Under the pieces are notes generated by a model. The model ran no database searches and was not told where the DNA came from. It worked only from the letters and a program-made list of their open reading frames with translations. Made by a program: the position numbers and the translations under genes. Positions 10,436 through 49,339 of a DNA stretch of 61,854 nucleotides are shown here, one piece after another (within the stretch, counting starts at the first letter, position 1; every line of letters begins with the position of its first letter). Where the stretch lies: assembly GCA_949118805.1 (NCBI GenBank), contig CASAUJ010000003.1, positions 1-61,854 of the forward strand. Reading direction: 5' to 3'. The DNA comes from an uncultured Clostridia bacterium. GTDB taxonomy: Bacteria; Bacillota; Clostridia; TANB77; CAG-508.

Positions 10436-11187
10436 TTATTCATTTTCTTCATACTCCACATTTACCAAATAAAGTCCCTGTGGTGGTAATGTCTTTCCTG
10501 CTTTTTCACGATCTTTGGCTATGATTATATTATAAATTTCTTCAGGTTCTATATTTCCTAATCCTACCTCTACTAGTGTTCCAGCTATAATTCTAACCAT
10601 ATTGTATAAAAATCCATTTCCTGTTAACTCAATCCATATTTTATGATTTTCTTTCTCAATTATTTCCGCTTTATAAATGATTCTTACACTACTTTTTGAA
10701 CTAGTTCCACTTGCTTTAAATGCTTTAAAATCATGTTCTCCCTCAAAATATTGAATGGCTTGTTTCATTCTATTTACATCTAATTTTATTGGAATATGGG
10801 TTTCCAAATTTCGATAAATAGCACTTCCTATCTTCTCATTATTAATGACATATCGATAAGTTTTTCTTTTACAAGATAAACGACTATGAAATCTCTCCTC
10901 TACTTCTTCTGCTGATTTAATCAAAATAGATTTTTTTAAATTACTATTAATTGCAATGGGAAATTTCTCAATTGGAATATTTGAGTTGGTTTTAAAATTT
11001 GCAACTTGTCCGAAGAGCATGAACACCACTATCTGTTCTTCCAGATGCCATCAATTCTATTTTTTCTCCTGTTATTTGTTCAATCGCTTTTTCGATGGTT
11101 CCTTGTATATTTAATTTATTAGGTTGCTTTTGCCACCCGATTAAACTCTTTCCCATCATATTCAATGGTTAGTTTTATATTTCTCAT
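10436..11187 (-). CDS. truA: tRNA pseudouridine(38-40) synthase TruA; needs two +1 shifts at CGG (11137-11139 and 11010-11012)
   Basis: Three consecutive frames give MRNIKLTIEYDGKEFN | GWQKQPNKLNIQGTIEKAIEQITGEKIELMASGRTDSGVHAL | GQVANFKT...(197-aa ORF). The GWQ and GRTDxGVHAxGQV TruA motifs are restored only by skipping the C of each CGG. Confidence 0.85.
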
Positions 11188-13233: not shown

Positions 13234-14557
13234 CTATTTCCTTACTTCTAATATAACCGCTTCCTTTTGTACTGGGCTTTTTGAAATTTTAATTATTTCT
13301 TTTATTTTTTCTCTTGCCTCTTTCAATTTTTCCTCATGATTTGCATGAATATACGCTAAAATTTCTTTTTTTTGTACTTTTTCTGCCACCTTTTTATGAA
13401 ATACAATTCCTACTGCTAGATCGATTTTATCTTCTTTCTTTTCTCTTCCAGCCCCCAACATCCCCACTAATTTTCCAACTTCTTTACTATTGATTTCTTG
13501 TATATAACCTTCTTCTTCACAAAAGACTGGTTCTCTATACTTTGCCTTTGGTAATTTTTCTAAATCCTCTATGGCGGTTATATCGCCTCCTTGTTGCTTT
13601 ACTAATTGTAAAAATTTCTCATATGCTTTTCCATTTTTTATTTGTGTTAATAAATTATTTCTATTTTCTTCTAAATTTTCTCCTTTACCAGCTAATTTTA
13701 TCATATAACTTCCAAGTTCTATTACGACTTGTTTTAAATCTTCTGGCATTTCTCCTTTTAAAAACTTAACAGCTTCCTTTACCTCTAAAGAATTTCCGAC
13801 CGCATATCCTAATGGTTCATTCATATTGGTCAAAACACAAATCGTTTCTCGATTGGCTAACTTTCCTATTTGTATCATAGTATTGGATAATTTTCTCGCC
13901 TCTGTCAAATTTTGCATAAAAGCACCTTTTCCTACTGTCACATCTAAAACTATTTTTTGTGCACCACTTGCAATCTTTTTACTCATGATACTAGAAGCAA
14001 TTAATGGAATACTCTCTACACAAGCTATACTATCACGCAAAGCATATAATTTTTTATCCGCTGGCGCTAAATTCAAAGTTTGAGAAATCAAACTAATTCC
14101 AATTTCTTCTACATTTTTTATAAACTCCTTTATTCCTATTTCTGTTCGATAACCTGGAATTGCCTCCAATTTATCTATGGTTCCCCCTGTAAATCCTAAT
14201 CCTCTACCTGACATTTTAGCTACTGGTATTCCGAAAAGAACTTACTAATGGCAACAAAATCAAAGAAACCTTGTCCCCTACGCCTCCTGTCGAGTGTTTA
14301 TCCACAATAATTCCTTTTAGTGTGGATAAATCTAAAATTTCTCCTGAATGTGCCATGGCTAATGTTAAATCGGTTGTTTCCTGATCTGAAATTCCATTTA
14401 AAAATATTGCCATAATAAATGCTGCCGCTTGATAATCTTGTATCTTTCCCTTTGTATATTCCATGATAAAATATTCAATTTCTTCTTTGCTTAATTCTTG
14501 TTTCCTTTTCTTTTTCTCTATGATCTCTATTCCATTCATGTTTATAATCCTTCCCAA
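13234..14557 (-). CDS. pdp: pyrimidine-nucleoside phosphorylase; needs a +1 shift at CGG 14231-14233
   Basis: The 113-aa N-terminal ORF (…HSTGGVGDKVSLILLPLVSSF) and the 326-aa ORF (MSGRGLGFTGGTIDKLE…) join as ...LVSSF|GIPVAKMSGRGLG when the C of TTT-CGG-A is skipped. Confidence 0.85.
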
Positions 14558-23043: not shown

Positions 23044-23646
23044 TTAATTTAATATTTTATTTATCCAAATCTTCCCTTTTTTATTAATTCGTAGTGTAAT
23101 TTCTCTGTCCTCATCTGTTCGAAATAATTTATTTCCACTTTTCTTTAATTTTTCCAAAACATTAGAATTAGGATGTCCAAAAGTATTTTTTTCCCCCACT
23201 CCAATTAGTGCTATTTTGGGATTTACTGCATTTAAAAATTTTTCTGTCGATGAAGATTTTGAACCATGATGGACTACTTTTAATATCGTAAATTGTAATA
23301 TATTTGTACCTTTATATTTTTCTAAAATTTCCTTTTCAGCAACTTCCTTAATATCTCCTGTAAATAACATAGAAAAATTTTTATCGTTCAATTTGCATAC
23401 TAAAGATTTGTTATTCATACTATTTTCGTTAATTACTTCCTTTGAATTTGGCCATAATATATCAAAATATAAATTTTTTTCTATTTGGATTCTTTGTCCA
23501 ACTTCCACTACTTGTACTTTCACATTCTTCCCTTTTACTATTTTTAGAAACTCTTGATAATTTGTTGAATCTTCAAATTGCTTTCCTATAATAACACTTT
23601 TTACTTTTATTTCTTGTAATAAATATAGATAGAACTGTACATGATC
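23044..23646 (-). pseudogene. 5'-truncated paralogous copy of the comEC 3' end (metallo-beta-lactamase domain)
   Basis: The open frame begins right after a TGA. DHVQFYLYLLQEIKVKSVIIGKQFEDSTNYQEFLKIV...HHGSKSS...FGHPN...LFRTDEDREI is colinear with ComEC residues from HFDQDHIGG onward. A 39-nt stretch (23554-23592) is identical to 26863-26901. Confidence 0.75.
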
Positions 23647-26355: not shown

Positions 26356-28780
26356 TTTATATGCTTTTGGACTTTGATTTTTCCATTATGATTTACACTA
26401 ATACTTATTTCTCCATTTACATCAGTCCTATAAATCTTACAACCGCAAGTTTTCTAGTCTTTCTAAAACACTTGCGTTTGGGTGTCCAAAAGTATTCTTC
26501 TCTCCCACTCCAATTAGTGCCATTTTAGGTTTTACCTTATTGATAAACTCTTCTATTGACGACGACTTCGAGCCATGATGTGCTACCTTTAATATTGTAG
26601 ATTCTAATACATTTGTGTCTTTATACTTCTCTAGCATGGTTTGTTCTGCAATACTTTCAATATCTCCTGTAAATAGAATAGATAGGCTCTGATACACCAT
26701 TTTGCAAACCAAAGAATTATTATTCATACTATTTTCACTAATTCCACTCTTTGAACTTGGCCATAAAACATCAAAATAGAAATCTTTTTCGATATTTATT
26801 CTCTGACCTGCCTCCACCACATGGACTATTATCTTCTTCTTTTTAACAATTTCTAAAAACTTTTGATAATTTGTTGAATCTTCAAATTGCTTTCCTATAA
26901 TTACATTCTTTACTTTAATTTTTTCCATAATATACAGCAATCCGACCAATGTGGTCTTGATCGAAATGGCTTATTACAATGGCATCAATTGTTCGATATC
27001 CTCTATCCAATAAATAAGGGAGCAAGACTTTTTTCCCCACATCAAATTCTTGATTTTTACTTCCGCCTCCGTCTACTAAAATCGTTCGATTTTGAGGCGT
27101 TACTATAAAAGTACCGTCTCCTTGTCCAACATCTACAAAATGAATTCTTAATTCTTTTGGCATTCCTATAACCATCCAAAATAGAAAAATTAAGAATATT
27201 ACGCTATATTTTCTTTTTCTTTGATGCAGTCGATAACGAAATAATGCAATTAAATTTTTTACTCTTTGATAACTTACTATCCTTTTTTCTTCTTGATAAA
27301 TAAGATATAATTTCCTTATTAAGCCTACTCCTACCAAATAAATTATAATGTGAAATAAATTTGGTGTTGATAAATAAATTTTAGAAAAAGGAATTTGGCT
27401 AAAAAAATTCGCAATGAAATTTAAAAAATCTAACCCAATGGATAATGGAATTTTACAAAAAGGAATAAACAAACTAAAAAAAGTCAATAAAATAATAGGT
27501 CCTATTATAAAACTTGCCCATAAATTTGTAATTAAAAAATAAATTCCGCCTATATTAAAATGATAAATTAAAATTGGAAATATTACGATTTGCACTGATA
27601 AACTAACTGCTATTACTTCTTTTATCTTGCCTAAAAAAAAATTTTTCTTTTTTATTACTTTTAAATTCAATTGTTTCAAAATAATAGGATAAAACAATAA
27701 GATTCCAATCGTTCCTAAATAAGAAAGTTGTAATCCTACCTGTAAAATTAGAAATGGATTATAGATTAAAATACTTAATAAAGAAATTGCCATAGAATTC
27801 CATACATCACTTTTTCGATAAATTAAACTACTACCAATAGTAATTTCTGTCATGATAACAGCTCTTACAATTGAGGGCGAAAAACCTGTCACCAAGGCAT
27901 ACAAAATAAGAATTATCATGGTTATTATCTTTGATTTTCTTTTTCCTACCAACTTTTTTAATAACAATTGAACTCCTATTGTAAGATAACCAATATGTAA
28001 TCCAGAAATTGCTAAAAGATGTGAAATACCTGCGATTTGAAACTTTTCTTTTACTTCTTCTGATAGTTCTGTTGTTTCTCCTAACAGCAATCCTTTTAAA
28101 ATTCCAGCCTTCTCTGGTTGCCATGTTTCCTCTATTTTCTCTTTGATTTTTAAGTTGATTTTATGGGCTATTGATGTCACTACATTTTGTTGTTTCTTAG
28201 CTATTACTTCAAATTGATCTACTTTTAGTTTTCCTATTATTTTTAATGTCTTAAAATATTTTCTTTCATCATATCCACCATAATTAGTAGCTTCTCTTGT
28301 TTTTTTTAATTCCCCCTGTAACTTAACTTTATCTCCATATTGAAGTTCCATTTCTCCTTTTTTAACTTGAATCCATAGATTAAAATGTTTTTCTAATACT
28401 TTTACTTGATAACAATCATAATATTGTTTTTCTAATTTTTGACTTATCACAATTCCTATCATTGAAATTTTCTGTCCCTCTAGATATAAATTTTCTTCCT
28501 TTCTATTTTGAAATAAAATAATTGTATGGGAAAGAATTGAAAATGAAACTAGAATAAAAATAGTTTGGATGTTAAACATTAATTTTAAATATCTACTATA
28601 TCTTTTAAAAGATAATAGCTTAAATTTTTGTTTTCTTTTTGTTTTTAAAACTTTGTTATAAAAATAGTAAGTTGCTCCTATCAAGATATAAAAGAGGACT
28701 ATACTAAATGAAAAGTATAGCCCCCATAATATACCTATTATATAACCTATTAGTGCAACTAAAACTGGTCTTTCTTTCAT
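26352..28780 (-). CDS. comEC: DNA internalization competence protein ComEC/Rec2; needs two +1 shifts at CGG (26942-26944, 26443-26445)
   Basis: Polytopic competence domain, then VDVGQGDGTFI...ISHFDQDHIG|GLLYIMEK...VAHHGSKSS...FGHPNASVLERLENL|GCKIYRTDVNGEISISVNHNGKIKVQKHIN. The stop at 26352-26354 overlaps the lysR stop. Confidence 0.9.
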
Positions 28781-35821: not shown

Positions 35822-36682
35822 TTAAGATTTAGAAATCATTTTACCATTTGCACCAATCCCACTTACACCATTTTTTCCATCTCTTAATTCTTCTGCAATA
35901 TCATCTATTGTAATATATTTATAATTTTCAGTAAAAGCTATTTTTTCTGCAATTACCAACGGATCTAAGAAATCAATTAAAATTCTAGCTGGTGAAGAGG
36001 CAAAATTAGCTCCTGCTGAAATAATTGCTTCGAAATAACTTTGACAGGCACCTGCAAAAATAACGAGATGATTATTGGTTTCTTGGTCATATTTCCTAGC
36101 TTCTTTTACTGTTTGAATAAAATATTTAGAATTTCTATAATTATAAATATTGTGATAATCAGTACCTCTTTTTATCATTCCATCATGTCCTGTTATAACA
36201 AGAATATCTGGCTGATAAGCTTTTAACAAAGAATATACCTCTCGTGGTTGTTTGTATTCAGGTATATTTCTAACAATGGCATTAAGTCCTAATTTTTTAT
36301 AATAGTAATAAGATTTTTGACTGTATTTCTTATCTCCATCTAAGTGCAAAATCTTTCCTGTTACAATTCTTTCTTTGCTTCTGTGTTTTGGTATGACGAT
36401 TCCTATCTTATAATCTTCTGGACTTCTTATTTCTTTCGTTTTTGTTATTTTATGATGCATTCTATCCTGTAAATTTCCCATTTTTTCGTTTATTTTTTGC
36501 TTTTCTACTTTTTCTAAATCCTCTATACTACTATCTGCTTCAACTCTATCCACCAATCCTTTTAAGATGGCGATTTTTTCTTTTTTAGTATTGATCACAT
36601 ATTTTACTACAAATAAAATATCTTTCCCATAAGATTTTCTTGCTACAACATCTCCCTTTTTTATCTTACTCATTTTCTCCAC
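35822..36682 (-). CDS. yabG: sporulation-specific protease YabG
   Basis: 286 aa. GDVVARKSYGKDILF...ILHLDGD...DILVITGHDG...FAGACQS pattern. Confidence 0.85.
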   Translation of the reverse strand: MEKMSKIKKGDVVARKSYGKDILFVVKYVINTKKEKIAILKGLVDRVEADSSIEDLEKVEKQKINEKMGNLQDRMHHKITKTKEIRSPEDYKIGIVIPKHRSKERIVTGKILHLDGDKKYSQKSYYYYKKLGLNAIVRNIPEYKQPREVYSLLKAYQPDILVITGHDGMIKRGTDYHNIYNYRNSKYFIQTVKEARKYDQETNNHLVIFAGACQSYFEAIISAGANFASSPARILIDFLDPLVIAEKIAFTENYKYITIDDIAEELRDGKNGVSGIGANGKMISKS

Positions 36683-36788: not shown

Positions 36789-37307
36789 TCATTTCTTTCT
36801 TAAAATCTCCCATTGAATTCTTTCTACTAAAGTTGCTATAAAGAAAGCATTCGTTGGATTTTCTTTAGAATTCCCAAAAAGTCTTTCGAACTCTCTCAGG
36901 TTTCCCTCTAGCCATGCATCATTTATAACCTTTCTTATTGATTTTTCGACCCTAGAAGCATTGCTTTCATATCCTTTTGCCACTTCCTTATATAATTTTT
37001 TCGTTATAGAATCTAGTAATTTCGGATTTGTTACAGCTAAAACAATTGCTGTTTTTAAATACCGATATCCTTTTAACTTTGCTGGTACTCTTAGTTGCAT
37101 TAAATACTTTGTTGCCAAAAACTCTATTCTTTGCGCATTTTCTTCCTCCTTGTTCTGAATGTTTACTTCTGGTTCTAGCATTACTATTAAACCACTCATT
37201 CTCTGTATCATTTCCCTTAATTCTTTTTTTTCTGGAATTTCTTTTGCTGATAAATCATTCATTTTCCGCATGGTTTCTTTTAATTCTTTGAAAATTTCTT
37301 CTGTCAT
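36789..37307 (-). CDS. stand-alone Spo0A C-terminal (DNA-binding) domain protein, no receiver domain
   Basis: LRVPAKLKGYRYLKTAIVLAVTNPKLLDSITKKLYKEVAKGYESNASRVEKSIRKVINDAW parallels the Spo0A_C helix-turn-helix region. In-frame CGG at 37062-37064 is read through. Confidence 0.65.
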   Translation of the reverse strand: MTEEIFKELKETMRKMNDLSAKEIPEKKELREMIQRMSGLIVMLEPEVNIQNKEEENAQRIEFLATKYLMQLRVPAKLKGYRYLKTAIVLAVTNPKLLDSITKKLYKEVAKGYESNASRVEKSIRKVINDAWLEGNLREFERLFGNSKENPTNAFFIATLVERIQWEILRKK

Positions 37308-39483: not shown

Positions 39484-39521
39484 AAAATGAGGATTTAGGA
39501 ACTATCCTAAATCCTCATTTT
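39484..39521. terminator. bidirectional terminator hairpin
   Basis: AAAATGAGGATTTAGGA-ACTA-TCCTAAATCCTCATTTT. It contains the stop codon of the spoIIID 3' segment. Confidence 0.7.
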
Positions 39522-39663
39522 CTTTTTGGTGACTATATTTTAATTTAGTGGCCAATCCTCCTCTTAAATGTCTTTCTGCTTTATTTTCATCTAAAATAAT
39601 TCTAACTTCTTTTGCTAATCTTGGATTGATTTTCTTAAGTCTTTCTGATACATCTTTATGTAC
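39502..39663 (-). CDS. spoIIID: spoIIID, 3' segment (C-terminal ~53 codons), separated from its 5' segment by the intervening element
   Basis: Hand translation gives VHKDVSERLKKINPRLAKEVRIILDENKAERHLRGGLATKLKYSHQKENEDLG*. This closely parallels B. subtilis SpoIIID ...STVHKDLTERLPEINPDLANEVKEILDYHKSIRHLRGGEATKLKYK. No start codon or RBS of its own. Confidence 0.85.
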   Translation of the reverse strand, partial: VHKDVSERLKKINPRLAKEVRIILDENKAERHLRGGLATKLKYSHQKENEDLG

Positions 39664-39665
39664 TG
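39646..39665. repeat. putative attachment site (left junction) of the spoIIID-intervening element
   Basis: TGATACATCTTTATGTACTG versus TGTAACATCCGTGTGTACTG at 48988-49007: 15 of 20 identical, with shared cores TGTACTG and ACATC. Confidence 0.6.
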
Positions 39666-41236
39666 ACATTACTTTTCGTAACGGTAGAATTTATATCATT
39701 AAAATGAGTAATAACAGTTGGTGTACTTCCTATTTCGTTTAGTAATTTTAATCTTACTTCTACGTTTGAATCACTGTCTACTTCAATTACATCTATAATT
39801 GTTTTTAGCATGGCATTTGTGATTGTTTCGTTATTTAAAATGTCATCTACTGTACAAATTGTTTTTGATAATTCTTTTTCCAATACATCTTTTTCTTTTA
39901 TTTCTGATGTAATTAGTTTTAGTTCTCTTTCTAGTCTTGCTATATCTTCATTTAATGGATTGGTATATTTTTTTAGTTCTTGTATATTGATTACTTCGTT
40001 TTGGAACATCTCCATATATTTTTGCTTTTTAACTATTACTTTTTCTATTTCTTGAAGTATGCTTTCTTCACTTCTTTCGTTACTTTCTCTTAATTTGGTA
40101 ATCTTTTCAAATTCTTTTTCAACTGCTTTCATAAAGTTCTTTTTGTTCGAAATAATACTTTTTAAATATTCTTTTATTGCATTTAAAAGCTCTTCTTCAT
40201 CAATAACAGTAGTATTAGGGCAATGGTTTACACCCATTGAATTTCTTCCACTACATACCCATCTTATATATTCTTTGCCGTCTTCTGTGTATTTTCTTCT
40301 TATTCTTCTAAATGAATATCCACAATGTTTGCAATAGATAAGTGTACTAAATACATATTCCGTTTTTTCTCTTTTATTATTTAGTTTAAATTCGTTTGAC
40401 CTTTGGGCTAGAATATCTTGTGCTCTATTAAATAATTCGTCTGATATAATTCTCATTTCTGGTTTATCTACTATAATCCATTCTTCTTCAGGCAAGTCTT
40501 TTCTTGTTCCTGTTATAAAATCTGTAACTTCACTTTTTTTATTGGTTACTCTTCCTGTATAGATTGGATTTTTAAGCATTCTTACAATAGAAGTTTGTAC
40601 CCATTTTGATTTTGTTTTTTTAGTTCTTATTCCTCTATCATTTAAGTCCCAAGCAATTTTTGTTGTTCCAATTCCTTTATATACATAGCTTTCAAATATT
40701 TCTTTTACTATTTTTGCTTCTTCTTCATTTATTTTTAGTGTATATCTTTCATCTGGTATTTTATCATATCCAAATACAATATTAGGAACTCGCCCTTTTT
40801 TAGCAGTGATGTCCTTTCCAAATTTAACCCTTTTAGACATATTGGCACTTTCTTGTTGTGCCATTGCTCCTAAAATGGTTAATATAAATTCAGAGCCACC
40901 TTCCATTATTTCACCATTGTTTAAGAAATCAACTTCAATCCCATAAGACTTTAGCTCTCTAATACTTTGTAATAAATCTACTGTATTTCTGGCAAAACGG
41001 CTTACATCTTTTACTACTACTTTATCAAATTTCTTTGCTTTAGCATCTTGCATCATTGCCTGAAATTGTTTTCTGTGTTTGATTTGCTTTCCTGATATTC
41101 CTTCGTCTGCATATAGTTTGTACAATTCATAATTATTCTTTTTGGTAAATTCATTAAAAAACTCAATTTGCTTTTCAAATGATTCAACTTGTGATTCTTT
41201 TTCAGTTGATACTCTTGCATATGCTGCAATTTTCAT
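39656..41236 (-). CDS. large serine recombinase (SpoIVCA/phage-integrase type)
   Basis: MKIAAYARVSTEKESQ...YADEGISGKQ resolvase catalytic domain, recombinase domain, Cys-rich zinc ribbon (CKHCGYSF...WVCSG...HC) and coiled-coil. The stop codon lies 1 nt outside the shared att core. Confidence 0.9.
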   Translation of the reverse strand: MKIAAYARVSTEKESQVESFEKQIEFFNEFTKKNNYELYKLYADEGISGKQIKHRKQFQAMMQDAKAKKFDKVVVKDVSRFARNTVDLLQSIRELKSYGIEVDFLNNGEIMEGGSEFILTILGAMAQQESANMSKRVKFGKDITAKKGRVPNIVFGYDKIPDERYTLKINEEEAKIVKEIFESYVYKGIGTTKIAWDLNDRGIRTKKTKSKWVQTSIVRMLKNPIYTGRVTNKKSEVTDFITGTRKDLPEEEWIIVDKPEMRIISDELFNRAQDILAQRSNEFKLNNKREKTEYVFSTLIYCKHCGYSFRRIRRKYTEDGKEYIRWVCSGRNSMGVNHCPNTTVIDEEELLNAIKEYLKSIISNKKNFMKAVEKEFEKITKLRESNERSEESILQEIEKVIVKKQKYMEMFQNEVINIQELKKYTNPLNEDIARLERELKLITSEIKEKDVLEKELSKTICTVDDILNNETITNAMLKTIIDVIEVDSDSNVEVRLKLLNEIGSTPTVITHFNDINSTVTKSNVST

Positions 41237-41351
41237 AACATCACTACTTTCTTTTTATTTTTCTGTATCTTTATTATCGTTCTGTTACATTTTATCATAT
41301 TGATTTTAGAAAAGCAATACATAGTAAAAAATCTACTCATAAAAGTAGATT

Positions 41352-42092
41352 TTAGTTTTTCATTTTATAAACATTATTTTTAATTCCAATCATTTCTATT
41401 GTTTCCAACATATTAGTAATAGCATTTATTAAATCGGAAATTGATAGTTGTTGTAATACTTTTCTAGTTTTAAAGTCCCATACATTATTTTTAATTGTCA
41501 TCCATTGTTCATGAACAAACCTATTTCTTATTTTCTTGGCTTGTATGATAATTTTCTTTTCTTTTTCAACACTTTTTAATAGATTATTCCTATCATAAAT
41601 TTTTAATACTTTTATACATTCCTTTGTATTCTGTGGTTTTGTTTTAATATCTACTTCCAATTTTTCAATAAATGTATTAGTTATCTCTTTCAATACTCCT
41701 TCAAAAAAGGATAATAAACACATTATAATTGTATTAGTACTTATTTGTTCTGTTAAAGGCATCCAATAATTTTTCTCCTCTTCTTCACCAAAATACAATT
41801 CGACTAAATCATTAGCATCCGAATATGTTCCATCATCAAACTTTACTGTTTCAAAATTATCATCTTGCATCCATTCCAATAATTCTTTCATTCTATTGTC
41901 AATACCCTTGATTCTATTATTAACACTTTCTGTAATAAAATATGCATAATCATTTAAAGCATAAAATTGCGTTGAATACTTATCCATTTTTTTGTCAGTA
42001 GTAATTGTTCTAAAAATTCTATATGGATTTTCTCTTTTACTATTAAATCCATCAAATATTATATCTTCTTTACTATATAGTCTTTCCATCAT
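41352..42092 (-). CDS. hypothetical protein with HEPN-like RNxxxH motif (Abi-like)
   Basis: 246 aa. KKIRNRFVHEQW near the C-terminus fits the HEPN Rx4-6H (RNxxxH) signature. The rest is unrecognised. Confidence 0.45.
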   Translation of the reverse strand: MMERLYSKEDIIFDGFNSKRENPYRIFRTITTDKKMDKYSTQFYALNDYAYFITESVNNRIKGIDNRMKELLEWMQDDNFETVKFDDGTYSDANDLVELYFGEEEEKNYWMPLTEQISTNTIIMCLLSFFEGVLKEITNTFIEKLEVDIKTKPQNTKECIKVLKIYDRNNLLKSVEKEKKIIIQAKKIRNRFVHEQWMTIKNNVWDFKTRKVLQQLSISDLINAITNMLETIEMIGIKNNVYKMKN

Positions 42093-42098
42093 AACTCT

Positions 42099-43526
42099 TT
42101 ATATATTCACTTTCCAATATCCATTTTTTTTAGAACCTAATCGTTCTAATATTCCCATATCTTTTAAAACTTTTATATTTCTATAAATTGAATTTCTAGT
42201 TTTATTTAACTCCACTGCAATTTCTTCTTGAGTAATATAATTATCTTTAGAAACCACCTCAATTATATCAATATATACTTTTCTTAATTCTGGATATTTT
42301 TCTTTCACTTTTAATACTACATTTTTTGCTACATTTTCATCATTTAATGCTACGTTTTTTGTATCAATTTTATTTTCTCCTGTTAAGTCAAGTAATTCTT
42401 CATCAGTCTTTCTATAAAATATAACCATAAAGCCATTTTTTCTGATTTCAAACTTTACTTTAACATCTGCTTTTGCACATACTTCTGTAATTCTTCTAAA
42501 ACCAGAACCCCATTTTTCAATATCTTTTGATAAATATAAAGTATTTGCTATTAATGGATTTCTTGGAATAGATCCTTCTCCTTTAATAAAATCTTCTGGT
42601 TTATATCCTTCTGGAAACTCTCCAGGATTAAATATTTCTACTCTATCTTTATAGATTGCTACTTCATTACTTTTCGGATTTTTAAAATCTCTGTGTATAA
42701 GTGAATTTATTATCGCTTCTCTTATTGCTTCTAAAGGTATTTCTGGTATTTCTACTCTTTCCATTCCACCGCTTTTAAAATTAACAGGCCATTTTATATT
42801 TTTTCTAATATATCCTTCTCCTGTTTCTATTAATTCAAAAATATTTCCAAATACTTGATCCATATCTAAAAAAGTTAGTTTTGTTTCTGTCGCAAAAATA
42901 GCCATTTGCATTTCAAGTTTTGCTTCCTTTGCAAACAAGATATATCCTGCATTTAATAGTTCATTATTCTTATTCACTAAAGATAATTTTTTTAATATTT
43001 CTTCTTTGTTTGTATATGGAAATTTGATTCTTTTTGCTTTTCTCCCCTTTTCTATAAACTCTTTTAACAATTCTTCATCAATATCATCTATTGTATAATC
43101 AGATACTTTGCTTTCCCATTTACCTATTTCGTTTTCATCTTTTAATATTATTTTTCTTATTTCTTTCATTGAAAGTTGTCTATCTTCATCTCCAACTCTC
43201 ATATAAGCTCGTCCAAAAGCTAAATAAGGAATATCGTCTCCTTCAAATTCAACTAATATACAGTCTTTGTCATTTAATTTAACTTTATTCACAACTGGAT
43301 ATATTTTAGGTTCTATATTTTCAGATATTGCTTTTGAAACTTCTCTTATTGTTTTACTTGATACATCTTGTCCAATGATTTCTCCATTATCTTTTATTCC
43401 AAAATACAATTTTCCACCTTGATGTTTATTTAATATTGAAACAATAGAAATTATGCCTTCTTTTAATTCTCCTGTTGTTTTCTTAAATTCTATAACTTCA
43501 TTTTCTAAAAAATTTATATTTGCCAT
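42099..43526 (-). CDS. AlbA_2 (Schlafen-like) + HATPase_c_4 + C-terminal wHTH protein ('RecG-like putative DNA-binding' family)
   Basis: ENEVIEFKKTTGELKEGIISIVSILNKHQGGKLYFGIKDNGEIIG (AlbA_2); EAIREAIINSLIHRDF (HATPase_c_4-like); C-terminal ITQEEIAVELNKTRNSIYRNIKVLKDMGILER HTH. Confidence 0.65.
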   Translation of the reverse strand: MANINFLENEVIEFKKTTGELKEGIISIVSILNKHQGGKLYFGIKDNGEIIGQDVSSKTIREVSKAISENIEPKIYPVVNKVKLNDKDCILVEFEGDDIPYLAFGRAYMRVGDEDRQLSMKEIRKIILKDENEIGKWESKVSDYTIDDIDEELLKEFIEKGRKAKRIKFPYTNKEEILKKLSLVNKNNELLNAGYILFAKEAKLEMQMAIFATETKLTFLDMDQVFGNIFELIETGEGYIRKNIKWPVNFKSGGMERVEIPEIPLEAIREAIINSLIHRDFKNPKSNEVAIYKDRVEIFNPGEFPEGYKPEDFIKGEGSIPRNPLIANTLYLSKDIEKWGSGFRRITEVCAKADVKVKFEIRKNGFMVIFYRKTDEELLDLTGENKIDTKNVALNDENVAKNVVLKVKEKYPELRKVYIDIIEVVSKDNYITQEEIAVELNKTRNSIYRNIKVLKDMGILERLGSKKNGYWKVNI

Positions 43527-43607
43527 AAAATTATTCTCCTATATACATTTTTCTTTGCTCAAATTATAGCATAAGTTATTTAAAATTTATAGTGTTTTTG
43601 TAAATTT

Positions 43608-43799
43608 TTACAATTCTAATTCATCTTCTATTTTGCGAGAATTTTGATAAGTATCTGAATTGTTGTAGTCAAATTTTATCTTTTCATCATTCTCAGCTAG
43701 ATTATATGCAAGAACTCCAGCCATAGCTTGTACTATCTGTTCTTCTGTATTAGGATTAATAAATTTAATATTCAAACTCTTTTTCAAAATTCTCACCAA
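43608..43799 (-). CDS. hypothetical small protein
   Basis: 63-aa ORF with a non-ATG start. No family recognised. Confidence 0.3.
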   Translation of the reverse strand: MVRILKKSLNIKFINPNTEEQIVQAMAGVLAYNLAENDEKIKFDYNNSDTYQNSRKIEDELEL

Positions 43800-43928
43800 C
43801 TTTCTTTTAATACTATGTTTTATCTAAAGCTTTTAGTACATTATATGATGAGATTTTGATAGATTCAATTCCGTTTTATTTCCCTTTTTTCTAAATTGTT
43901 AAACTGTATTTTCCAATCTTCACTTTTT

Positions 43929-44349
43929 CTAATCTGAAACAGTAGGAATAAATCTAATTTTAGAATTTTCAACATTAGGCTTACTTATATTTTCAAAACA
44001 AGGAAATACTCCTCCATCTGCTACTTTTATTATTTCAAAACTATCCTTAATATAATTATAAGTATCTTCTATTATATTTGAACATAAATATTTTATATTC
44101 TTTTTGTTTTAATGTTTTATAATATTCTATTAATTTACTATTAGTTATAAATCCATTTAAGCAATCTTTCCATTTTGGATTATGAAAAATTATATCATTT
44201 AGTTCTTTTCTTTTACCCTCTTCTCTATTTAATTTGTCTAAATATATTTTTGGATTGTAGTCAAGTAACACTCCACCTATATCCAATATTATATTTCTTA
44301 TCTTGCACTTACTCTCTTTCTTAATTTTTTTACTAATATAGCTATTCAT
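43929..44349 (-). pseudogene. HAD-superfamily hydrolase remnant, frameshifted
   Basis: IRNIILDIGGVLLDY is HAD motif I. The frame changes near 44085 (A/T-rich run, not a CGG site), continuing as KYLCSNIIEDTYNYIKDSFEIIKVADGGVF... and ending early. Confidence 0.55.
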
Positions 44350-44848
44350 TATCTTTTAATTTATATTCAACATCTAAAATATTTTCTTTTTCATCTACTT
44401 GAATATACATTTTAAAGTTATATTGATCATCAACTAATCCTTTTATGAAGAATCTATTTAAAATCATTATATTAGATAATATCTTTTCCTTTTGTAGCAA
44501 TTCATTGATTTCTATCCATTCTGATGTATTTTCTTCAAATTCTTGTAGTTTTCCCTCATATTCATTTGAAACAAATACATCAAAATCAAATATTCTATTA
44601 GGATATTCAATTATCATATTTCCTTTATATTTTAAGTTCTTAACTTTTAATCCAGTTTCTTCTTTCATTTCTCTAATTGCTGTTTCTTTAGTTTTTTCAC
44701 CTCCTTCAATTTTCCCACCAGGTATATCATAGTATCCAAATTTTCTATTTCCTTCTTTATACTTTGTAACTACTACTTTTTCATCTTTTATCAAATAGCA
44801 TCTTACTGCTTTTCTTATTTGCTTTTCCATATAATACTTATCTCCCAT
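44342..44848 (-). CDS. Nudix hydrolase (MutT-like)
   Basis: GGKIEGGEKTKETAIREMKEETGL Nudix box. It overlaps the HAD remnant start by 8 nt. Confidence 0.8.
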   Translation of the reverse strand: MGDKYYMEKQIRKAVRCYLIKDEKVVVTKYKEGNRKFGYYDIPGGKIEGGEKTKETAIREMKEETGLKVKNLKYKGNMIIEYPNRIFDFDVFVSNEYEGKLQEFEENTSEWIEINELLQKEKILSNIMILNRFFIKGLVDDQYNFKMYIQVDEKENILDVEYKLKDNE

Positions 44849-44887
44849 ATAACTCTCAACTATCGCATTTTATAAGATAATTGAATT

Positions 44888-45511
44888 CTATTTTTCAATT
44901 TCATTTTCATATATATTTTTGTATTGTTCAAACTTAACTTTCGCTCTTAGTAGTCCTGCATCTACTGCTATTTTTAAGTAATGCTCTGATAATTTCAAAT
45001 TTTTTTCTGTTCCAACTCCGTTATAATAAAAATTCGCTCCCAAATCATAAATTGCTGGAAGATGTCCTTGCATTGCACAATTATGTATTAATTCAAATGC
45101 CTTCTTTTCATCTCTTTCAATATTTCCAAATCCAAAATAGTAATAAGCTCCTAAACAAAATTTTGAAAATGCTTGTTTTCTTGGCTCCTGTTCTTCTTCC
45201 TCTATAAGTTCTAATAGCGGTTTATACGCCTCCATATGTATTTGTTTTGCTTTTTCCTTATCCTGTTCTACTCCATCCCCAAAATGATAGCAAGCACCAA
45301 CTCCATAGGCACAACGGGGATCTCCTAGCTCTTTTCCTTTTCCATACCAGTACATTGCTTTTTCAAAACTTTGCTCTGCTCCATTTTCCTGACTATCATA
45401 ACTTCTTCCCAAAATATAGCATGCAAGCTTATCTCCATTTTTAGCTTTCATTTCTAAATCTTCTAAATTAAATATCATTGGCTTTATTATATTATTCACT
45501 TTTAACTTCAC
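44888..45511 (-). CDS. Sel1/TPR-like repeat protein
   Basis: Repeated A.YWY.KGAELG...A.Y.LG.CY..G.GVE.D..KA units. Confidence 0.8.
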   Translation of the reverse strand: MKLKVNNIIKPMIFNLEDLEMKAKNGDKLACYILGRSYDSQENGAEQSFEKAMYWYGKGKELGDPRCAYGVGACYHFGDGVEQDKEKAKQIHMEAYKPLLELIEEEEQEPRKQAFSKFCLGAYYYFGFGNIERDEKKAFELIHNCAMQGHLPAIYDLGANFYYNGVGTEKNLKLSEHYLKIAVDAGLLRAKVKFEQYKNIYENEIEK

Positions 45512-45975
45512 CCAATTTCTTTAATAAAATATATCTTTTTATATTTTCATCTTGAAATATTTTCTCCAGCACTATATTAACTCTCCAATTATCGCCAAAA
45601 TCATATTGAAAGTCCATTTTTTCATTTTCTTTATCTGATACCCATTTCAAATTCACATCTTTAGCATCTTTTAATTCTCTATATCTTTTATCTACTCTTG
45701 GAATCATATTATCATCTTTAAATATACATCCATATTGTCCAAATTTGAAGAAATCATCATTTCTAAAATCTCTAAATGTTTATTATAATATTCTAAATTA
45801 TTTAGTTCATTTACTTCAAATAAATATAAATCACTGCCTTGTATTTCAAAAAGAGTCATTAATGTATAAGCTAACCTTATAACTTTATATCATTCATCAC
45901 TTGAAATCTTCTCCATATTTTGGGTTATGAGTCTTGTAATTCTGTATACATTTGATATATTGTTTTACTTGCCAT
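45492..45975 (-). pseudogene. pRiA4b ORF-3-like protein remnant, multiply disrupted
   Basis: MASKTIYQMYTELQDS*, PKIWRRFQV... and ...DFGDNWRVNIVLEKI (family-typical IWRR and GDxW motifs) lie in different frames with internal stops. Confidence 0.55.
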
Positions 45976-45988
45976 AATATCTCATCTC

Positions 45989-48829
45989 CTATTTTATAAT
46001 TTTTTCTCTTATTGATGAAATTATTTTCTCTTCATCATAAGACTCACCACCTGTTTCAAATCTTAACATGTCTATTCCATTCTTTTTAGCTATATTATCC
46101 TTTATCCTATCTTTTTCTAATTGTTTTGGATTATTTTTATGATATTTAAAACCATCAACTTCTATAAATAATTTTGGCTTATTATCCATTTTATCATATA
46201 TAACAAAATCTACTCTTGCACCATTATTCACATATGATTTCTCTTCATCATTTAAATTGTCTAGATTTTTAAAAATATTTCTAATAACTATTTCTCTTTC
46301 ATATTTATAATCTTTATAGTCTTCCTTTTTTAATTCATTATTCAAAATAGTATCCATTATATTTTCACTTTTGAATCTCGATCTATTAAGCAAATTACTA
46401 TTTAATTTTTCTAACTTTTTTGAATATTCTTTGTACAATAAATCAAATACTGAAACTATTTGACTATCAATAATTTCTGAATCTAATTCATTATATTTAA
46501 TATACTTTAATAATGCCTTTACATCGTTTCCCTCTTCATTAAATAATCTTCTATCTGTCACTATAACAAATTGTTTAATCGCTCTTGAGACTGCAACATT
46601 TATCATACAAGGATCATCTACAAAAGCAATGCCTCTTTTTCCCATGCTACTATTATCCAGTACAGTAGAAAGTATCATTAGCTTTTTCTCTCTTCCTTGG
46701 AATTTGTGAATTGTATCACTCTCTATATCTTCTTCTGTAGCTTTTTGTATATTATTTGCCTGCATTCTATAAGGTGTTGTAATTCCTATTTCGTCATCAC
46801 TGTATTGATTCGTCCTCTCATCTTGTAAAACCTCATCTTTTATAACTTCTAGTTCTCGTTCATTAAATGTACCTTTTTTATTTCTCCTTGTAATCTTTCT
46901 CATATGATTTCCCTCAGCTGTATAATACAATATTAAAGGTTTCTTTACTTGTTTATGCTCTTTAGTAGAAAATGCTATTAATTCATTATTGTAATATCTT
47001 TTATTACAAAATTCTATGATTTTAGGATGACATCTATAATGCTCTTTTAATGTTTCTCTTGGTATTTTATTACAATAGGTTCGTAATATTGCTGATAAAA
47101 TGCTATTTTCAAAATAATCATAACATATATCAACTTCTAAATTAGATATTTTTTCTTTTATCGTTTTATCCACTATTTGTGGTAATTGTTTTTCATCCCC
47201 TACTATTATTGCATTTTTAGCACAAGATAAGGCAAGTGAACCTGCTAATAAATCTACTTGTGAAGATTCATCTATAATTACATAATCAAACATAAAGTTA
47301 TTTGGTATGCAATTTCTTAAAGAATAGGTTGTACTTAATACAATTGGAAATGCTTGTAAAAAATCATCTATATTTTCTTTATAGTTTTGTAAATTAAACT
47401 CATTATTTTTTTCATAGTATTTAATATATAATCTATTTTTGAAAATTTTTTCTGAAATATTTTGATGCTCCCTCTGTAATTGTTCAAATTTATGTATTTT
47501 CAATTCGTTTTTTATGTCTTTATATTCTTTTTCAAGTTTTTCTATTTTTATTTTATAAAATTCTCTTTGCAAACTTAATATGAACTCAATCAAATGCTCG
47601 TCTAATTGCTTAAAATTGATAATTCCATATTTGAATAGTAGTTTAATTTTATATAACCATTTTACTTTTATTTTTCCTTCATATAGTAATTGACTATCTA
47701 ATAAAAATTCCAAAATTCTGTCATCCGTTTTATGATAAAAAGACAATTTTTGTATTTCTTCTATATTCTGTTTTTTATAATATTCTTCAAAATATCTCTG
47801 TTCTAGCTTAAATTGATCTATTTCCTTTTCTAATTTCGCTTTTTTGTTATTTTTCTCTAATAAGTAATCTAAACTATTGTTTACTTCTTGTATACGGTTT
47901 AATAGTTGACTCTCATCTTCTTTTAAATTAAAGTTTTTAACATTTGGTTGTGGAAGATTTTCAAAAAATTTCTCTCTTTTGCTCTTTCTTCCTAAATCCG
48001 CAACTATAAAATCATATCCATCTTTTTTTAATTTATCCTTCACATTTTTTACTGCTTCATTATTATTAGAAACTACTGCTACTGTTTTATTTTGTATAAT
48101 AGTTAAATTAGCAATTATATTCAATATCGTTTGTGTTTTTCCTGTTCCTGGTGGACCTTGTATAATTGATATATTACTTTTAAATATATTTTCCATCGCT
48201 TCTTTTTGGCTCAAATTAAATCTAAATGGATAAATTATATTATACTTTTCTTCTGTTGGTTTCATTAAGCCAATTTTATTAATATAATAATTTAAAATAC
48301 TCTCTTGATTTATATAGTTTAATTTTTCATATTCCCTTTTTAAGAAACTTTCTTGTTTTTCTTCATGTTCGTTTTCTTCCTCCTCTTTACCACTTTTTAC
48401 ATAGTTTGATATTTCTTTAAAATATTCAATTATATTTTTATTCAAATTTTCTATTGTATTAGATTTAAACGATAAATCATTATATCTAAATATTTCTGTT
48501 TCTCCACTTCTATATATAATTTTTGCAAAATCTTCAAACCTAATTACTTTTTCAATATTAAATAAGATTTGATTTTTATAATATATATCTTTTTCTTTTA
48601 AATCTATTACTATCGGTTTTTCTTTTACTATTACATTTATCTTGTTATAAGGATATTCTTGTTTATTTTTATAAAATTTTATGTTTATTTTTCCATCATT
48701 ATCGCATTGTGAAAAATGTTCTATATCTTTTGTTTTATCTTCTCCTTTAAGAATTACTAATATCTTTTCTTCATCCATTATTTTTTCCTTTACTACTTTT
48801 ATGGACTTAATTTTACCATATCTTTCCAT
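45989..48829 (-). CDS. SF1 (Upf1/DNA2-like, AAA_11/AAA_12) helicase fused to C-terminal PD-(D/E)xK (DUF559/Vsr-like) nuclease domain, with unknown ~200-aa N-terminal domain
   Basis: IIQGPPGTGKTQT Walker A, YVIIDESSQV Walker B, TIHKFQGREKK. C-terminal VDFVIYDK...LFIEVDGFKYHKNNPKQLEKDRIKDNIAKKNGIDMLRF. Confidence 0.8.
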   Translation of the reverse strand: MERYGKIKSIKVVKEKIMDEEKILVILKGEDKTKDIEHFSQCDNDGKINIKFYKNKQEYPYNKINVIVKEKPIVIDLKEKDIYYKNQILFNIEKVIRFEDFAKIIYRSGETEIFRYNDLSFKSNTIENLNKNIIEYFKEISNYVKSGKEEEENEHEEKQESFLKREYEKLNYINQESILNYYINKIGLMKPTEEKYNIIYPFRFNLSQKEAMENIFKSNISIIQGPPGTGKTQTILNIIANLTIIQNKTVAVVSNNNEAVKNVKDKLKKDGYDFIVADLGRKSKREKFFENLPQPNVKNFNLKEDESQLLNRIQEVNNSLDYLLEKNNKKAKLEKEIDQFKLEQRYFEEYYKKQNIEEIQKLSFYHKTDDRILEFLLDSQLLYEGKIKVKWLYKIKLLFKYGIINFKQLDEHLIEFILSLQREFYKIKIEKLEKEYKDIKNELKIHKFEQLQREHQNISEKIFKNRLYIKYYEKNNEFNLQNYKENIDDFLQAFPIVLSTTYSLRNCIPNNFMFDYVIIDESSQVDLLAGSLALSCAKNAIIVGDEKQLPQIVDKTIKEKISNLEVDICYDYFENSILSAILRTYCNKIPRETLKEHYRCHPKIIEFCNKRYYNNELIAFSTKEHKQVKKPLILYYTAEGNHMRKITRRNKKGTFNERELEVIKDEVLQDERTNQYSDDEIGITTPYRMQANNIQKATEEDIESDTIHKFQGREKKLMILSTVLDNSSMGKRGIAFVDDPCMINVAVSRAIKQFVIVTDRRLFNEEGNDVKALLKYIKYNELDSEIIDSQIVSVFDLLYKEYSKKLEKLNSNLLNRSRFKSENIMDTILNNELKKEDYKDYKYEREIVIRNIFKNLDNLNDEEKSYVNNGARVDFVIYDKMDNKPKLFIEVDGFKYHKNNPKQLEKDRIKDNIAKKNGIDMLRFETGGESYDEEKIISSIREKIIK

Positions 48830-48987
48830 AAAAATAAAGCATTCTACACATTTAACATGTAAAATGCTTATAATTTTTATTTAATTACCAATCCCAATTT
48901 CACAACAGGATTTTTCGTTGCCAAGAAAACCCCCTTTATTTCAATACTTTCTGGAACGACTTGTCCAAATTCTAAACCGTTCTTTAG

Positions 48988-49007
48988 TGTAACATCCGTG
49001 TGTACTG
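48988..49007. repeat. putative attachment site (right junction) of the spoIIID-intervening element
   Basis: TGTAACATCCGTGTGTACTG, an imperfect direct repeat of 39646-39665. Confidence 0.6.
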
Positions 49008-49116
49008 TTGACTTTGAAATACCAAATTTTGCTGCTGCACCCCTTACCGTATCTTTTGAATCTATTATATATTGTGCTAAATGAATTGCACGTTCTTCAA
49101 TTGATATACATCTCAT
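49001..49116 (-). CDS. spoIIID: spoIIID, 5' segment (N-terminal ~38 codons)
   Basis: MRCISIEERAIHLAQYIIDSKDTVRGAAAKFGISKSTV behind a GGGGG RBS matches the SpoIIID HTH. Beyond ...STVH the ORF-track protein (48877-49131) runs into unrelated element sequence (LKNGLEFGQVV...). Confidence 0.85.
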
Positions 49117-49339
49117 AGAGAAAACCCCCATACGAATACTTTTGTTTAATTGTATTCTTTATTATAAGGGCTTAGAACTTTATCTTTTATTTTCCATTCT
49201 ACTTTTCTTTATTTTCTAGCTTTTCCTTTTATATTTTTTTATTTTGAATTACACAATCCATAATTTTTTCTATATGTTCTCTATTCTTTGGTAATAAATA
49301 ATTTTTATCGCCTATCTATTTCTTAAAAATTGGGTACTT

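Follow-up and report, generated by a model that had tools for sequence, protein, structure and literature searches.

Large serine recombinase elements in the sporulation regulator gene spoIIID of uncultured gut Clostridia

Intervening elements that carry a recombinase gene and split a mother-cell gene of sporulation are known from sigK (skin), spoVFB (vfbin), spoVR (vrin), spsM (SPbeta), gerE (gin) and yabG (yin), and to our knowledge all characterised ones act later than spoIIID, which encodes the first mother-cell transcription factor under σE and stands at the top of the mother-cell cascade, directly below this sigma factor. Here we describe an element of 9,342 bp in the spoIIID gene of an uncultured Clostridia bacterium, encoding a large serine recombinase (LSR) and located in a stretch of 61,854 nucleotides with about 29% G+C (positions 1 to 61,854 of contig CASAUJ010000003.1, assembly GCA_949118805.1); this whole stretch is called the window throughout.

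The element gin in gerE of Bacillus cereus ATCC 10987 (Abe et al. 2017, PMC5595907) is, like that of the window, a small non-prophage element in a short mother-cell transcription factor gene, and encodes an LSR of about 58 kDa (GirC) and a protein of about 6.5 kDa without conserved motif (GirX). A short common core, a crossover centred in an inverted-repeat attachment (att) site and variable accessory genes are also shared, the likeness being one of organisation only. The targets differ, gerE belonging to the σK stage and spoIIID to the σE stage, and girC is sporulation-induced whereas the LSR gene of the window, with its housekeeping-type promoter, is seemingly constitutive. Unlike in gin, the LSR open reading frame (ORF) of the window overlaps attP and takes its stop codon from the host, an in-frame tail is added to the 5' half of the host gene, and excision is a prediction.

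In C. difficile the small factor of the skin element, CD1234, is said to be SpoIIID-dependent, and the SPbeta recombinase is reportedly constitutive. In B. subtilis σE and SpoIIID both take part in the control of skin excision (PMC6957869), and such a dependence on SpoIIID is impossible for the window's element because SpoIIID is the interrupted product; since, in addition, the characterised elements act later, an element in spoIIID needs a different control logic. The skin elements in sigK (SpoIVCA/Skr in B. subtilis and CD1231/CD1234 in C. difficile; PMC5025042, PMC6957869) resemble the window's in occupying a mother-cell regulator gene and in having an LSR and a small factor under mother-cell control, for which the window has a candidate, and the C. 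difficile arrangement of a constitutive recombinase with a developmentally controlled factor is the layout that we infer for the window. They differ in being defective prophages (48 kb in B. subtilis), in target gene and in recombinase lineage. SPbeta in spsM (SprA/SprB; PMC4191935; cryo-electron microscopy structures 9dxh and 9dxd) provides, with SprA, the nearest full-length solved relative of the window's LSR, but it is an active 134-kb phage that interrupts a late polysaccharide gene instead of a regulator gene. Its directionality factor has a mother-cell promoter and a second, stress-inducible one (PMC4191935, PMC6957869), a possible parallel to the mother-cell-type and housekeeping-type sites found together in the window's subgroup of elements. 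The element yin in yabG of Clostridium botulinum (PMC10747680) is also clostridial and has, besides its recombinase gene, a putative small factor and what may be a mother-cell promoter, but it is prophage-like, known from one strain only and under σK-stage control, in contrast to a family present in more than 100 species.

Full-text searches of the literature gave no characterised rearrangement of spoIIID, in agreement with a preliminary description of the window, which did not count this gene among the characterised cases. A skin-like element interrupting spoIIID of Ruminiclostridium cellulolyticum H10 is noted in one sentence and Table S3 of Galperin et al. 2022 (bioRxiv 10.1101/2022.02.25.481979). 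By this published description, on which the comparison is based, the element (Ccel_3110/Ccel_3179) has the same target, with a 5' fragment of 42 codons that ends in the same gene region, and a 511-aa serine recombinase, Ccel_3111, at a junction; it is, however, 64.7 kb long, seven times larger than the window's, and is called skin-like. Ccel_3111 is located beside the 5' fragment on the opposite strand, whereas the LSR gene of the window is at the 3' junction, co-directional with spoIIID and overlapping the site. New here are a very widespread family of elements, a target upstream of all characterised cases, an LSR ORF that runs through the left arm of attP to a stop codon in host DNA, and a conserved chimeric ORF of SpoIIID and an element-encoded tail.

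The split spoIIID gene and its attachment sites

49149-49178, minus strand: host spoIIID promoter of the mother-cell (σE) type, GTTCTAA-N15-AATACAAT
49001-49116, minus strand: spoIIID 5' segment, codons 1-38/39, helix-turn-helix to the middle of the recognition helix, encoding MRCISIEERAIHLAQYIIDSKDTVRGAAAKFGISKSTVH
49001-49007, minus strand: attL core CAGTACA, from the empty-site alignment; proposed crossover CA at 49002-49001
39659-39665, minus strand: attR core CAGTACA; proposed crossover CA at 39660-39659
39502-39663, minus strand: spoIIID 3' segment, codons 38-90 and stop, VHKDVSERLKKINPRLAKEV...KLKYSHQKENEDLG before the stop; the whole segment reads VHKDVSERLKKINPRLAKEVRIILDENKAERHLRGGLATKLKYSHQKENEDLG
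39484-39521: terminator-like hairpin after the spoIIID 3' segment

The spoIIID gene, on the minus strand, is interrupted between codons 38 and 39 by the element (39659-49000, one copy of the core counted), the target codons being those of Val38-His39 in the recognition helix of SpoIIID. The 5' segment, for which an ATG upstream at 49131 is another possible start, matches the N-terminal part of P0001 and P0002, both intact proteins, with 100% identity, and the ORF from 49116 then enters unrelated sequence. When the two segments are joined, a 90-codon ORF is obtained that matches Pfam SpoIIID PF12116 (E=1.8e-37, 127.8 bits with a cut-off of 27, model positions 4-81 of 82) and shares 63% identity with SpoIIID of B. 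subtilis, with which (93 aa) the preliminary description had called the joined product colinear. It is also 100% identical to P0001 and P0002, which were found by protein search and are encoded at the syntenic empty site, and precise excision would therefore restore a single SpoIIID ORF identical to these intact alleles.

Eight metagenome contigs (L001-L008), whose DNA is 98-99.8% identical to the window on either side of the element, contain an uninterrupted spoIIID, and their genes are arranged as in the window (CmpB-like, spoIIID, zinc-finger ORF, purH). Their junction equals the left side of attL joined to the right side of attR, and the split is therefore a precise insertion of 9,342 bp and not a chance repeat. 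The search for uninterrupted relatives that had been suggested for the window is thus answered by contigs that fix both junctions, and the original account of spoIIID split by an element of about 9.3 kb with an LSR gene at one junction had the coordinates and the anatomy right, the anatomy gaining strong support from the recurrence of the junction in 78 of 80 genomes and 75 of 76 contigs (below). A second species is polymorphic, with an empty (L212) and a filled (L036) allele whose flanks are 98.6-99.6% identical, and the species of L043 is a third, so that both alleles occur in at least three species. The base-precise absence of the element from the empty alleles fits either naive sites or precise excision. 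Filled and empty alleles were not found in one and the same sample, and the window recombinase is not on record; the only filled contig of the window's species, L211, comes from another run than the empty contigs.

Alignment of the empty site with both junctions gives attB as ..TCAAAGTCAA CAGTACA TAAAGATGTATCAG.., attL as ..CAA CAGTACA CACGGATGTTACAC.. and attR as ..AATGT CAGTACA TAAAGATG.., with a strictly shared 7-bp core, CAGTACA, at 49007-49001 and 39665-39659. The imperfect 20-bp direct repeat reported earlier (39646-39665 / 48988-49007) was confirmed, its two copies agreeing in 15 of 20 positions. GTACA is found in both attL and attR in 24 of the 25 loci with both ends, the exception being L075 with GTCCA in attL. 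In these 25 loci the shared core varies in length from 5 to 21 bp, since the right arm of attP imitates spoIIID (GTACACAAAGATGTAAC) and keeps the recognition-helix codons VHKDVT. The attP site reconstructed from 25 elements is ACCGTT-N7-GTAACATC-AGTA/CA/CAAA-GATGTAAC-N7-AACGGT (slashes enclose the central dinucleotide), about 52 bp long. The best dyad axis passes through GTACA between its C and the final A, with a complementarity of 60% over +/-26 nt (other axes at most 37%). The central CA is a non-palindromic dinucleotide shared with attB, as is expected for the attP of an LSR, and the crossover was placed there because of the dyad axis, that is by symmetry and not by mapped cleavage. In the window's element alone, the left arm has AAT GTC for AAC ATC, by which an ATG is formed at 39667-39669 (minus strand) that opens a 55-aa ORF of the SpoIIID C-half (MSVHKDV..); this start is not conserved in the element family.

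In the window no second spoIIID was found by tblastn, so that the check for another copy suggested in the preliminary description is answered for these 61.8 kb.

The recombinase family and the persistence of the split gene

41277-41317, minus strand: LSR promoter with leader, housekeeping type with extended -10 (TTGCTT 41317-41312, TG 41297-41296, TAAAAT 41294-41289)
39656-41236, minus strand: LSR gene, 526 aa, with Resolvase PF00239 (E=1.1e-34), Recombinase PF07508 and Zn_ribbon_recom PF13408

The LSR has the catalytic motif YARVST with Ser10 as nucleophile, as read from the sequence, it matches the PHROG 95 integrase with E=6.6e-119, and its nearest full-length solved relative is SprA/YokA of SPbeta (E=2.6e-13, aligned residues 12-493). 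Its last nine codons are the left arm of attP (..ACC GTT ACG AAA AGT AAT GTC AGT ACA), and the stop TAA (39658-39656) is the first triplet beyond the core and is host DNA, from CAT AAA of spoIIID. The 3' end of the gene thus depends on DNA beyond the site, because the gene overlaps attP. The preliminary description correctly placed the stop just outside the core, but of its two suggestions, that excision would alter or fix the 3' end, the second does not hold, since the ORF, read on from attL, would be extended by about 20 codons in the excised circle.

The LSR promoter, TTGCTT-17-TGnTAAAAT, is kept in nearly all of 70 distinct aligned upstream sequences. For housekeeping promoters only such conservation across species was used, because single matches mean little: a scan for single σ70-type sites gave 58 matches, compared to 71 in shuffled sequence. 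As to the σE or σK boxes that it had been suggested to look for at this gene, the promoter is of the housekeeping type, and a mother-cell-type promoter is found at a small ORF instead. A leader, GTAACAGAACGA (41277-41288, minus strand), directly follows the -10 region, has the same position in nearly all loci and resembles the right half-site of attB, GATGTAtCAGAAaGA; both leader motifs are also present in the right arm of attP, 5 bp wider apart (GATGTAACA[CTAAA]GAACGG). Speculatively, the leader could be a site bound for autoregulation.

A search at E<1e-30 gave more than 7,800 homologues of the LSR, with which the 120 best clusters share 91-97% identity. The C-terminal tails of these 120 stop right after ..T in 32 clusters and run on with QR.. 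or QG.., the +1 reading of host CAC AAR GAY, in 84, with 4 otherwise; in 116 of the 120 closest clusters the tail thus follows spoIIID in the +1 frame or terminates at CAT AAA of this gene. In data with one genome per species at least 147 genomes encode a close relative of the LSR, all of them metagenome-assembled genomes of uncultured gut Clostridia (human, mouse, rabbit, chicken, sheep, deer and marmot), and the loci analysed are the best 80. The 3' half of spoIIID starts within the last codons of the LSR gene in 77 of these, including L021 with a divergent spoIIID, and the site is occupied in 78 when L032 is included, in which spoIIID is interrupted and an attP-type junction follows the LSR gene. 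The remaining two are L048, with a decayed element, and L070, which ends at the contig edge. Among metagenome contigs with the LSR, found by a pattern scan for the left arm, 75 of 76 continue into spoIIID. In L032 (CANRSN010000021.1, 11500-11800) the attP-type junction is followed by a second, decayed left end, which indicates a putative tandem array of elements inside spoIIID. Rare exceptions, L201 and L222, have the right end joined to other DNA.

The same target recurs in distant relatives. In a library clustered at 50% identity, 58 full-length representatives are 34-51% identical to the LSR, of which 18 end with ..T, one has a QRC tail and one reads in frame into the SpoIIID C-half. All three distant LSRs with readable DNA are located at the same codon (L220, P0373 and P0392, with 46, 45 and 42% identity respectively). 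L220 is GenBank MT838016.1, a 6.4-kb sequence deposited as 'UNVERIFIED: Bacteriophage sp.', and is a bacterial chromosomal fragment with a 46%-identical LSR in spoIIID of a host with higher G+C. At one distant carrier locus spoIID and a spoIIQ-like gene adjoin the split spoIIID.

The joined spoIIID ORF is intact in 25 of 25 loci and the C-half has its normal length in 77 of 78. The pairwise ratio of nonsynonymous to synonymous substitutions (dN/dS) is 0.10 for the whole of spoIIID at a dS of about 1.1 (N half 0.13, C half 0.09), and 0.06 for the LSR of the same loci at a dS of 0.65; strong purifying selection thus acts on both halves of spoIIID as well as on the LSR. A dN/dS of 0.10 for spoIIID while the LSRs diverged to a dS of 0.65 argues for a long coexistence without decay, and some horizontal spread is indicated, since the dS of the LSR is about half that of the host gene and its divergence correlates weakly with that of the host (rho 0.28). 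The elements have thus long been resident, moving horizontally to some extent, and spoIIID, though split, has not decayed over that time.

These values bear directly on the view that the insertion is a dead end, in which spoIIID was inactivated in non-sporulating lineages and its halves are relics. Loss of sporulation is common in uncultured gut lineages with small genomes, to which these hosts belong, several housekeeping ORFs in the window look truncated, and one element of the family has decayed: in L048 (CANAUI010000033.1) the LSR is truncated at residue 509, the contig has no attR, the small ORF is lacking, the tail contains a frameshift and the element harbours a transposase-like ORF, and spoIIID may be permanently broken in that genome. 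Relics would hardly, however, be expected to join to an intact ORF in every one of 25 loci, to keep C-halves of normal length and to evolve at the dN/dS given above while the LSRs diverged; LSR, small ORF and att sites are all conserved as well, and yabG is intact nearby. We therefore regard the dead end as very improbable. The carriers possess sporulation genes and are putative spore formers.

Proposed control of excision

43840-43868, minus strand: housekeeping-type promoter-like site, TTGAAT-17-TATAAT, abutting the mother-cell-type promoter on its upstream side
43810-43839, minus strand: mother-cell-type promoter of the small ORF, GTACTAA-N15-CATAGTAT
43608-43799, minus strand: small acidic ORF, candidate recombination directionality factor, 63 aa if TTG 43799 is the start, but more likely 59 aa with TTG 43787, behind GGTGAG, as start

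A small acidic ORF is present in 65 of 81 loci whatever the cargo, and among the loci with more than 2 kb upstream of the LSR gene it is missing in four (L019, L021, L048 and L083). It is located 156 bp to 5 kb upstream of the LSR gene, on the same strand in all loci except L023, and has 1,115 homologues. Several groups of sequence without relation to one another precede the small ORF, but from about -35 on they converge on GT(A/T)(A/C)TA(A/T)-N15-(A/C)ATA(G/C)(T/A)AT. The strict pattern is found in 55 of 64 loci with the small ORF, at a fixed distance of 13-14 nt from it, and the other 9 have near-matches that are off by a base or in spacing. The host spoIIID promoter, kept at an equal position in 27 aligned species and matching the strict pattern in 19 of them, has the identical layout of -35 region, spacer and -10 region. 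The joint pattern has two matches in the window, both at these promoters, where 0.07 is expected by chance, a figure to be read with the knowledge that the pattern was derived from the two sites matched; in the fetched loci its matches fall upstream of the small ORF or of spoIIID. The -10 region of the small-ORF promoter resembles the canonical mother-cell boxes CATATTAT/CATATAAT, and the -35 region of most of these promoters has the 'ATA' typical of σE (PMC3789822). As spoIIID is σE-dependent in B. subtilis and C. difficile (PMC517825; PMC3789822) and the layout is shared, the small ORF should be switched on together with spoIIID. Control at the σE stage, which the preliminary description had predicted from the position of SpoIIID upstream of σK, fits this layout.

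Two further arrangements were seen upstream of the small ORF or its counterpart. A conserved non-coding block of about 150 nt (..ATAGTACATTGAAAATTGAATAGCAAGTTACAAGCACAGATAATGAAACTTTCGTCTGGCTAACGTGATGTAAAGGGGCGATTC..AATGAGGGCAAATCTCATATGGGTAT..), without match in Rfam, is located about 60-220 nt upstream of the small ORF in L009, L012, L025-L029, L031, L036, L043 and others, and is lacking in the window's element. In L224 (1170-1384), which carries a 42%-identical LSR, a 46-aa ORF is found 116 nt upstream of the LSR gene, preceded by TTGCATA-15-CATAGTCA and a strong ribosome-binding site; profile comparison of this ORF with the small ORF was not significant, though the arrangement is alike.

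From these data it is probable that the element is developmentally excised, with a directionality factor that is co-regulated with spoIIID by σE. The LSR would be made constitutively from its housekeeping-type promoter and, after asymmetric division, the mother-cell σE RNA polymerase would fire both the spoIIID promoter and that of the small ORF. The small acidic protein, as directionality factor, would enable the LSR to act on attL and attR, with the crossover at the central CA, upon which the 9.3-kb circle would leave, the intact spoIIID would be restored, SpoIIID would accumulate and the cascade to σK would proceed. The forespore chromosome would retain the element, which would in this way be inherited through the spore. 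Analogues for the proposed steps are skin with SpoIVCA-Skr, SPbeta with SprA-SprB, C. difficile with CD1231-CD1234 and gin with GirC-GirX. Carrier bacteria probably must cut the element out to finish a spore, and the recombination module would be preserved by selection because the host cannot, on this proposal, complete sporulation without excision, with the cargo riding along.

Several points weigh against developmental excision. The small ORF has no match in Pfam, PHROG, PADLOC or PDB and no similarity to a known directionality factor, and its AlphaFold2 model, two helices with a predicted local distance difference test (pLDDT) score of 60, is of low confidence. The promoters were assigned by consensus and conservation, not from mapped transcripts. 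A second spoIIID may be present in the genome outside the window. For the excised circle, a degenerate 39-nt attP pattern gave no match in metagenome contigs of the Joint Genome Institute (JGI) and none in IMG/VR. Two ENA contigs (L089 and L090) do carry a junction of the recombinase end with the left end, of attP type, but they were not counted as proof of circles because they lack terminal overlap, the tail has a 2-nt deletion, and tandem arrays exist (L032). Excision in nature is plausible, with indirect support from the purifying selection on both halves of spoIIID, the precise empty alleles and these two ambiguous junctions; in sporulating cells of the uncultured hosts it is a deduction. 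Lastly, the housekeeping-type site abutting the small-ORF promoter could permit excision outside sporulation; it is confined to a subgroup formed by the window's element, L010, L013, L016, L022, L024, L032, L051 and L066.

This last site would also suit an ordinary integrative element for which the conserved spoIIID codons are a reliable landing site and whose excision is stochastic or linked to stress or transfer, making it a reversible ON/OFF switch of sporulation (phase variation or bet hedging). The presence/absence polymorphism within at least three species, the horizontal spread seen in the LSR values and the constitutive type of the LSR promoter are also in line with such a switch. We nevertheless hold it to be unlikely, since the small-ORF promoter mirrors that of spoIIID throughout the family and is not of the housekeeping type, and the characterised elements in mother-cell genes are all excised developmentally (PMC4191935, PMC5025042, PMC5595907). 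A block of sporulation should, moreover, be costly for gut anaerobes that are transmitted as spores, yet at least 147 species representatives carry the element.

The left end of the element bears on a different possibility, namely that the integrated state has a function of its own.

48877-49000, minus strand: element left end, attP right arm (CACGGATGTTACACTAAAGAACGGT), then in-frame tail on the SpoIIID N-half (..TDVTLKNGLEFGQVVPESIEIKGVFLATKNPVVKLGLVIK and stop)
48837-48869, minus strand: terminator-like hairpin after the chimeric ORF; equivalent hairpins and T-runs in most loci

By this left end the SpoIIID frame is extended by 41-49 codons (..VHKDVTLKNGxxxGQVIPESIEIKGVFLAEKNPVVKLGLVIK and stop). 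The tail is open in 25 of 27 loci (42 or 49-50 aa), with indels in multiples of three. Its dN/dS is 0.24-0.26 at a dS of 0.73, a noisy value from 31-38 codons of related sequences, and the fusion frame is the best of six and without stops, compared to 0.37-1.65 for the other frames. Since the tail appears to be under selection and has no start codon of its own in the circular form, it should be translated as a fusion to the SpoIIID N-half. No match to the tail was found in Pfam, PHROGs, PADLOC or PDB, and the AlphaFold2 model of the chimeric ORF is uninformative (pLDDT 55). In the left end, TTGGACAAGT at 48959-48968 (minus strand) agrees in 8 of 10 positions with the high-affinity SpoIIID site TAGGACAAGC (consensus cited in PMC11180830) and is partly conserved in the family; in the window such SpoIIID-box-like matches are not enriched (6 compared to 3.2 expected).

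Integration might accordingly be seen as rewriting spoIIID: a conserved and selected tail of 37-45 aa would be made only as a helix-turn-helix fusion from the host σE promoter, the chimera would trigger or assist excision or transiently replace the regulator, the trigger would be destroyed by the excision it causes, and an old, diverse clade of serine recombinases would be devoted to one spoIIID codon. We put this forward tentatively, as a possibility that is more doubtful than co-regulation of the small ORF. In its strongest form, in which the chimera of SpoIIID helix-turn-helix and tail is the key product, as an altered regulator or the true excision cofactor, and the small ORF does something else, the idea is improbable. 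The open tail with its in-frame indels and its dN/dS, the translation as a fusion which such selection would imply, and the VHKDVT codons preserved in the right arm of attP all speak for it, but the tail has no known domain and an uninformative model, its dN/dS is noisy, the SpoIIID-box-like motif is no commoner than chance, and the directionality factors of all characterised systems are encoded by small ORFs of their own.

A further feature near the crossover is a GC-rich palindromic hairpin of about 21-24 nt (e.g. GTAGGGGCGAGCATTGCTCGTCCG or GGGGCGATTAGTAATCGCCCC), which is inserted in frame at either of two places: about 55 nt left of the crossover, inside the LSR gene (L027, L031 and L036), or in the tail ORF, some 45 nt to the right of the crossover (L035, L030, L036, L014 and L077). 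It adds the peptide VGASIARP or GAISNRP to both proteins, and is not present in the window's element.

Cargo, neighbouring genes and meaning of the family

45989-48829, minus strand: 946-aa superfamily-1 helicase (AAA_11/AAA_12) with a C-terminal DUF2726 nuclease-like domain and PADLOC similarity to MkoA/MkoC
44056-45859, minus strand: block of small ORFs, 51 aa, a 71-aa PRiA4_ORF3 fragment, a 207-aa Sel1-repeat protein, a 168-aa NUDIX hydrolase (PADLOC PDC-S07) and a 97-aa ORF
42099-43526, minus strand: 475-aa Schlafen/AlbA_2 + HATPase_c_4 + winged-helix protein, also in L035, L043 and L021
41352-42092, minus strand: 246-aa ORF without family match

In the fetched flanks the elements range from 4,658 to 11,210 bp. 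The LSR gene with its promoter, the 59-63-aa acidic ORF and the in-frame tail are the conserved modules, and the cargo varies; other elements carry a ToxN/AbiQ-like ORF (one weak AbiQ match), a reverse-transcriptase fragment and many ORFs without match. Part of the cargo resembles anti-phage defence proteins. There are no phage genes in the element, for which PHROGs gave only integrase and helicase-type matches and Pfam and PADLOC only helicase, Schlafen, NUDIX and Sel1; a close relative is also lacking in IMG/VR. No element-related RNA was found with Rfam in the window or in four related loci. The element was first described as skin-like, which is apt for a site-specific LSR element in a mother-cell regulator gene; it is not prophage-like, however, and stands closer to the non-phage gin class, and in the strict sense of a defective prophage the term does not apply, the minimal elements of 4.7 kb having no room for phage genes.

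Outside the element, the window has a further host sporulation gene, for the peptidase YabG (35822-36682, minus strand), which is intact and scores 270.2 bits for TIGR02855 with a cut-off of 270.4. A 172-aa ORF next to purH (36789-37307, minus strand) matches Spo0A in the C-terminal DNA-binding domain alone (E=1.3e-28 for TIGR02875 positions 117-257, under the curated cut-off); a receiver domain is not present upstream, since purH ends at 37485, and the ORF represents either a paralogue that consists of Spo0A-C by itself or a gene that has been truncated. The comEC gene is in pieces, with two separate C-terminal fragments (23044-23523, 26437-26949 and 26915-28780, minus strand; 10436-11029 and 13234-14214 are also among the truncated ORFs), and the ORFs of TruA and of a pyrimidine-nucleoside phosphorylase are short of about 60 N-terminal and about 108 residues respectively; these broken ORFs may be frameshifts, pseudogenes or assembly errors. 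A glmS ribozyme (2583-2738, plus strand; Rfam RF00234, 86.5 bits), an ordinary feature, precedes glmS, and a 777-aa ORF (6517-8850, plus strand) with a weak match to VirD4-like conjugal coupling proteins (CD1115 family, E=2e-7, far under the cut-off) may be a remnant of another mobile element.

If excised as proposed, the element would place a DNA-rearrangement checkpoint between the activation of σE and the SpoIIID/σK programme. The family is seemingly very common, with at least 147 species-representative genomes, several thousand LSR clusters and LSRs down to 42% identity; its carriers are uncultured Clostridia that live in the gut of humans, mice, rabbits, chickens and ruminants. Its recombinases would form a natural collection of integrases with high site specificity, for which attB and attP are defined. 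Predictions of sporulation from genomes will wrongly score the carriers as lacking spoIIID, and the elements themselves would be compact carriers of variable cargo, stabilised by the need of their hosts to sporulate.

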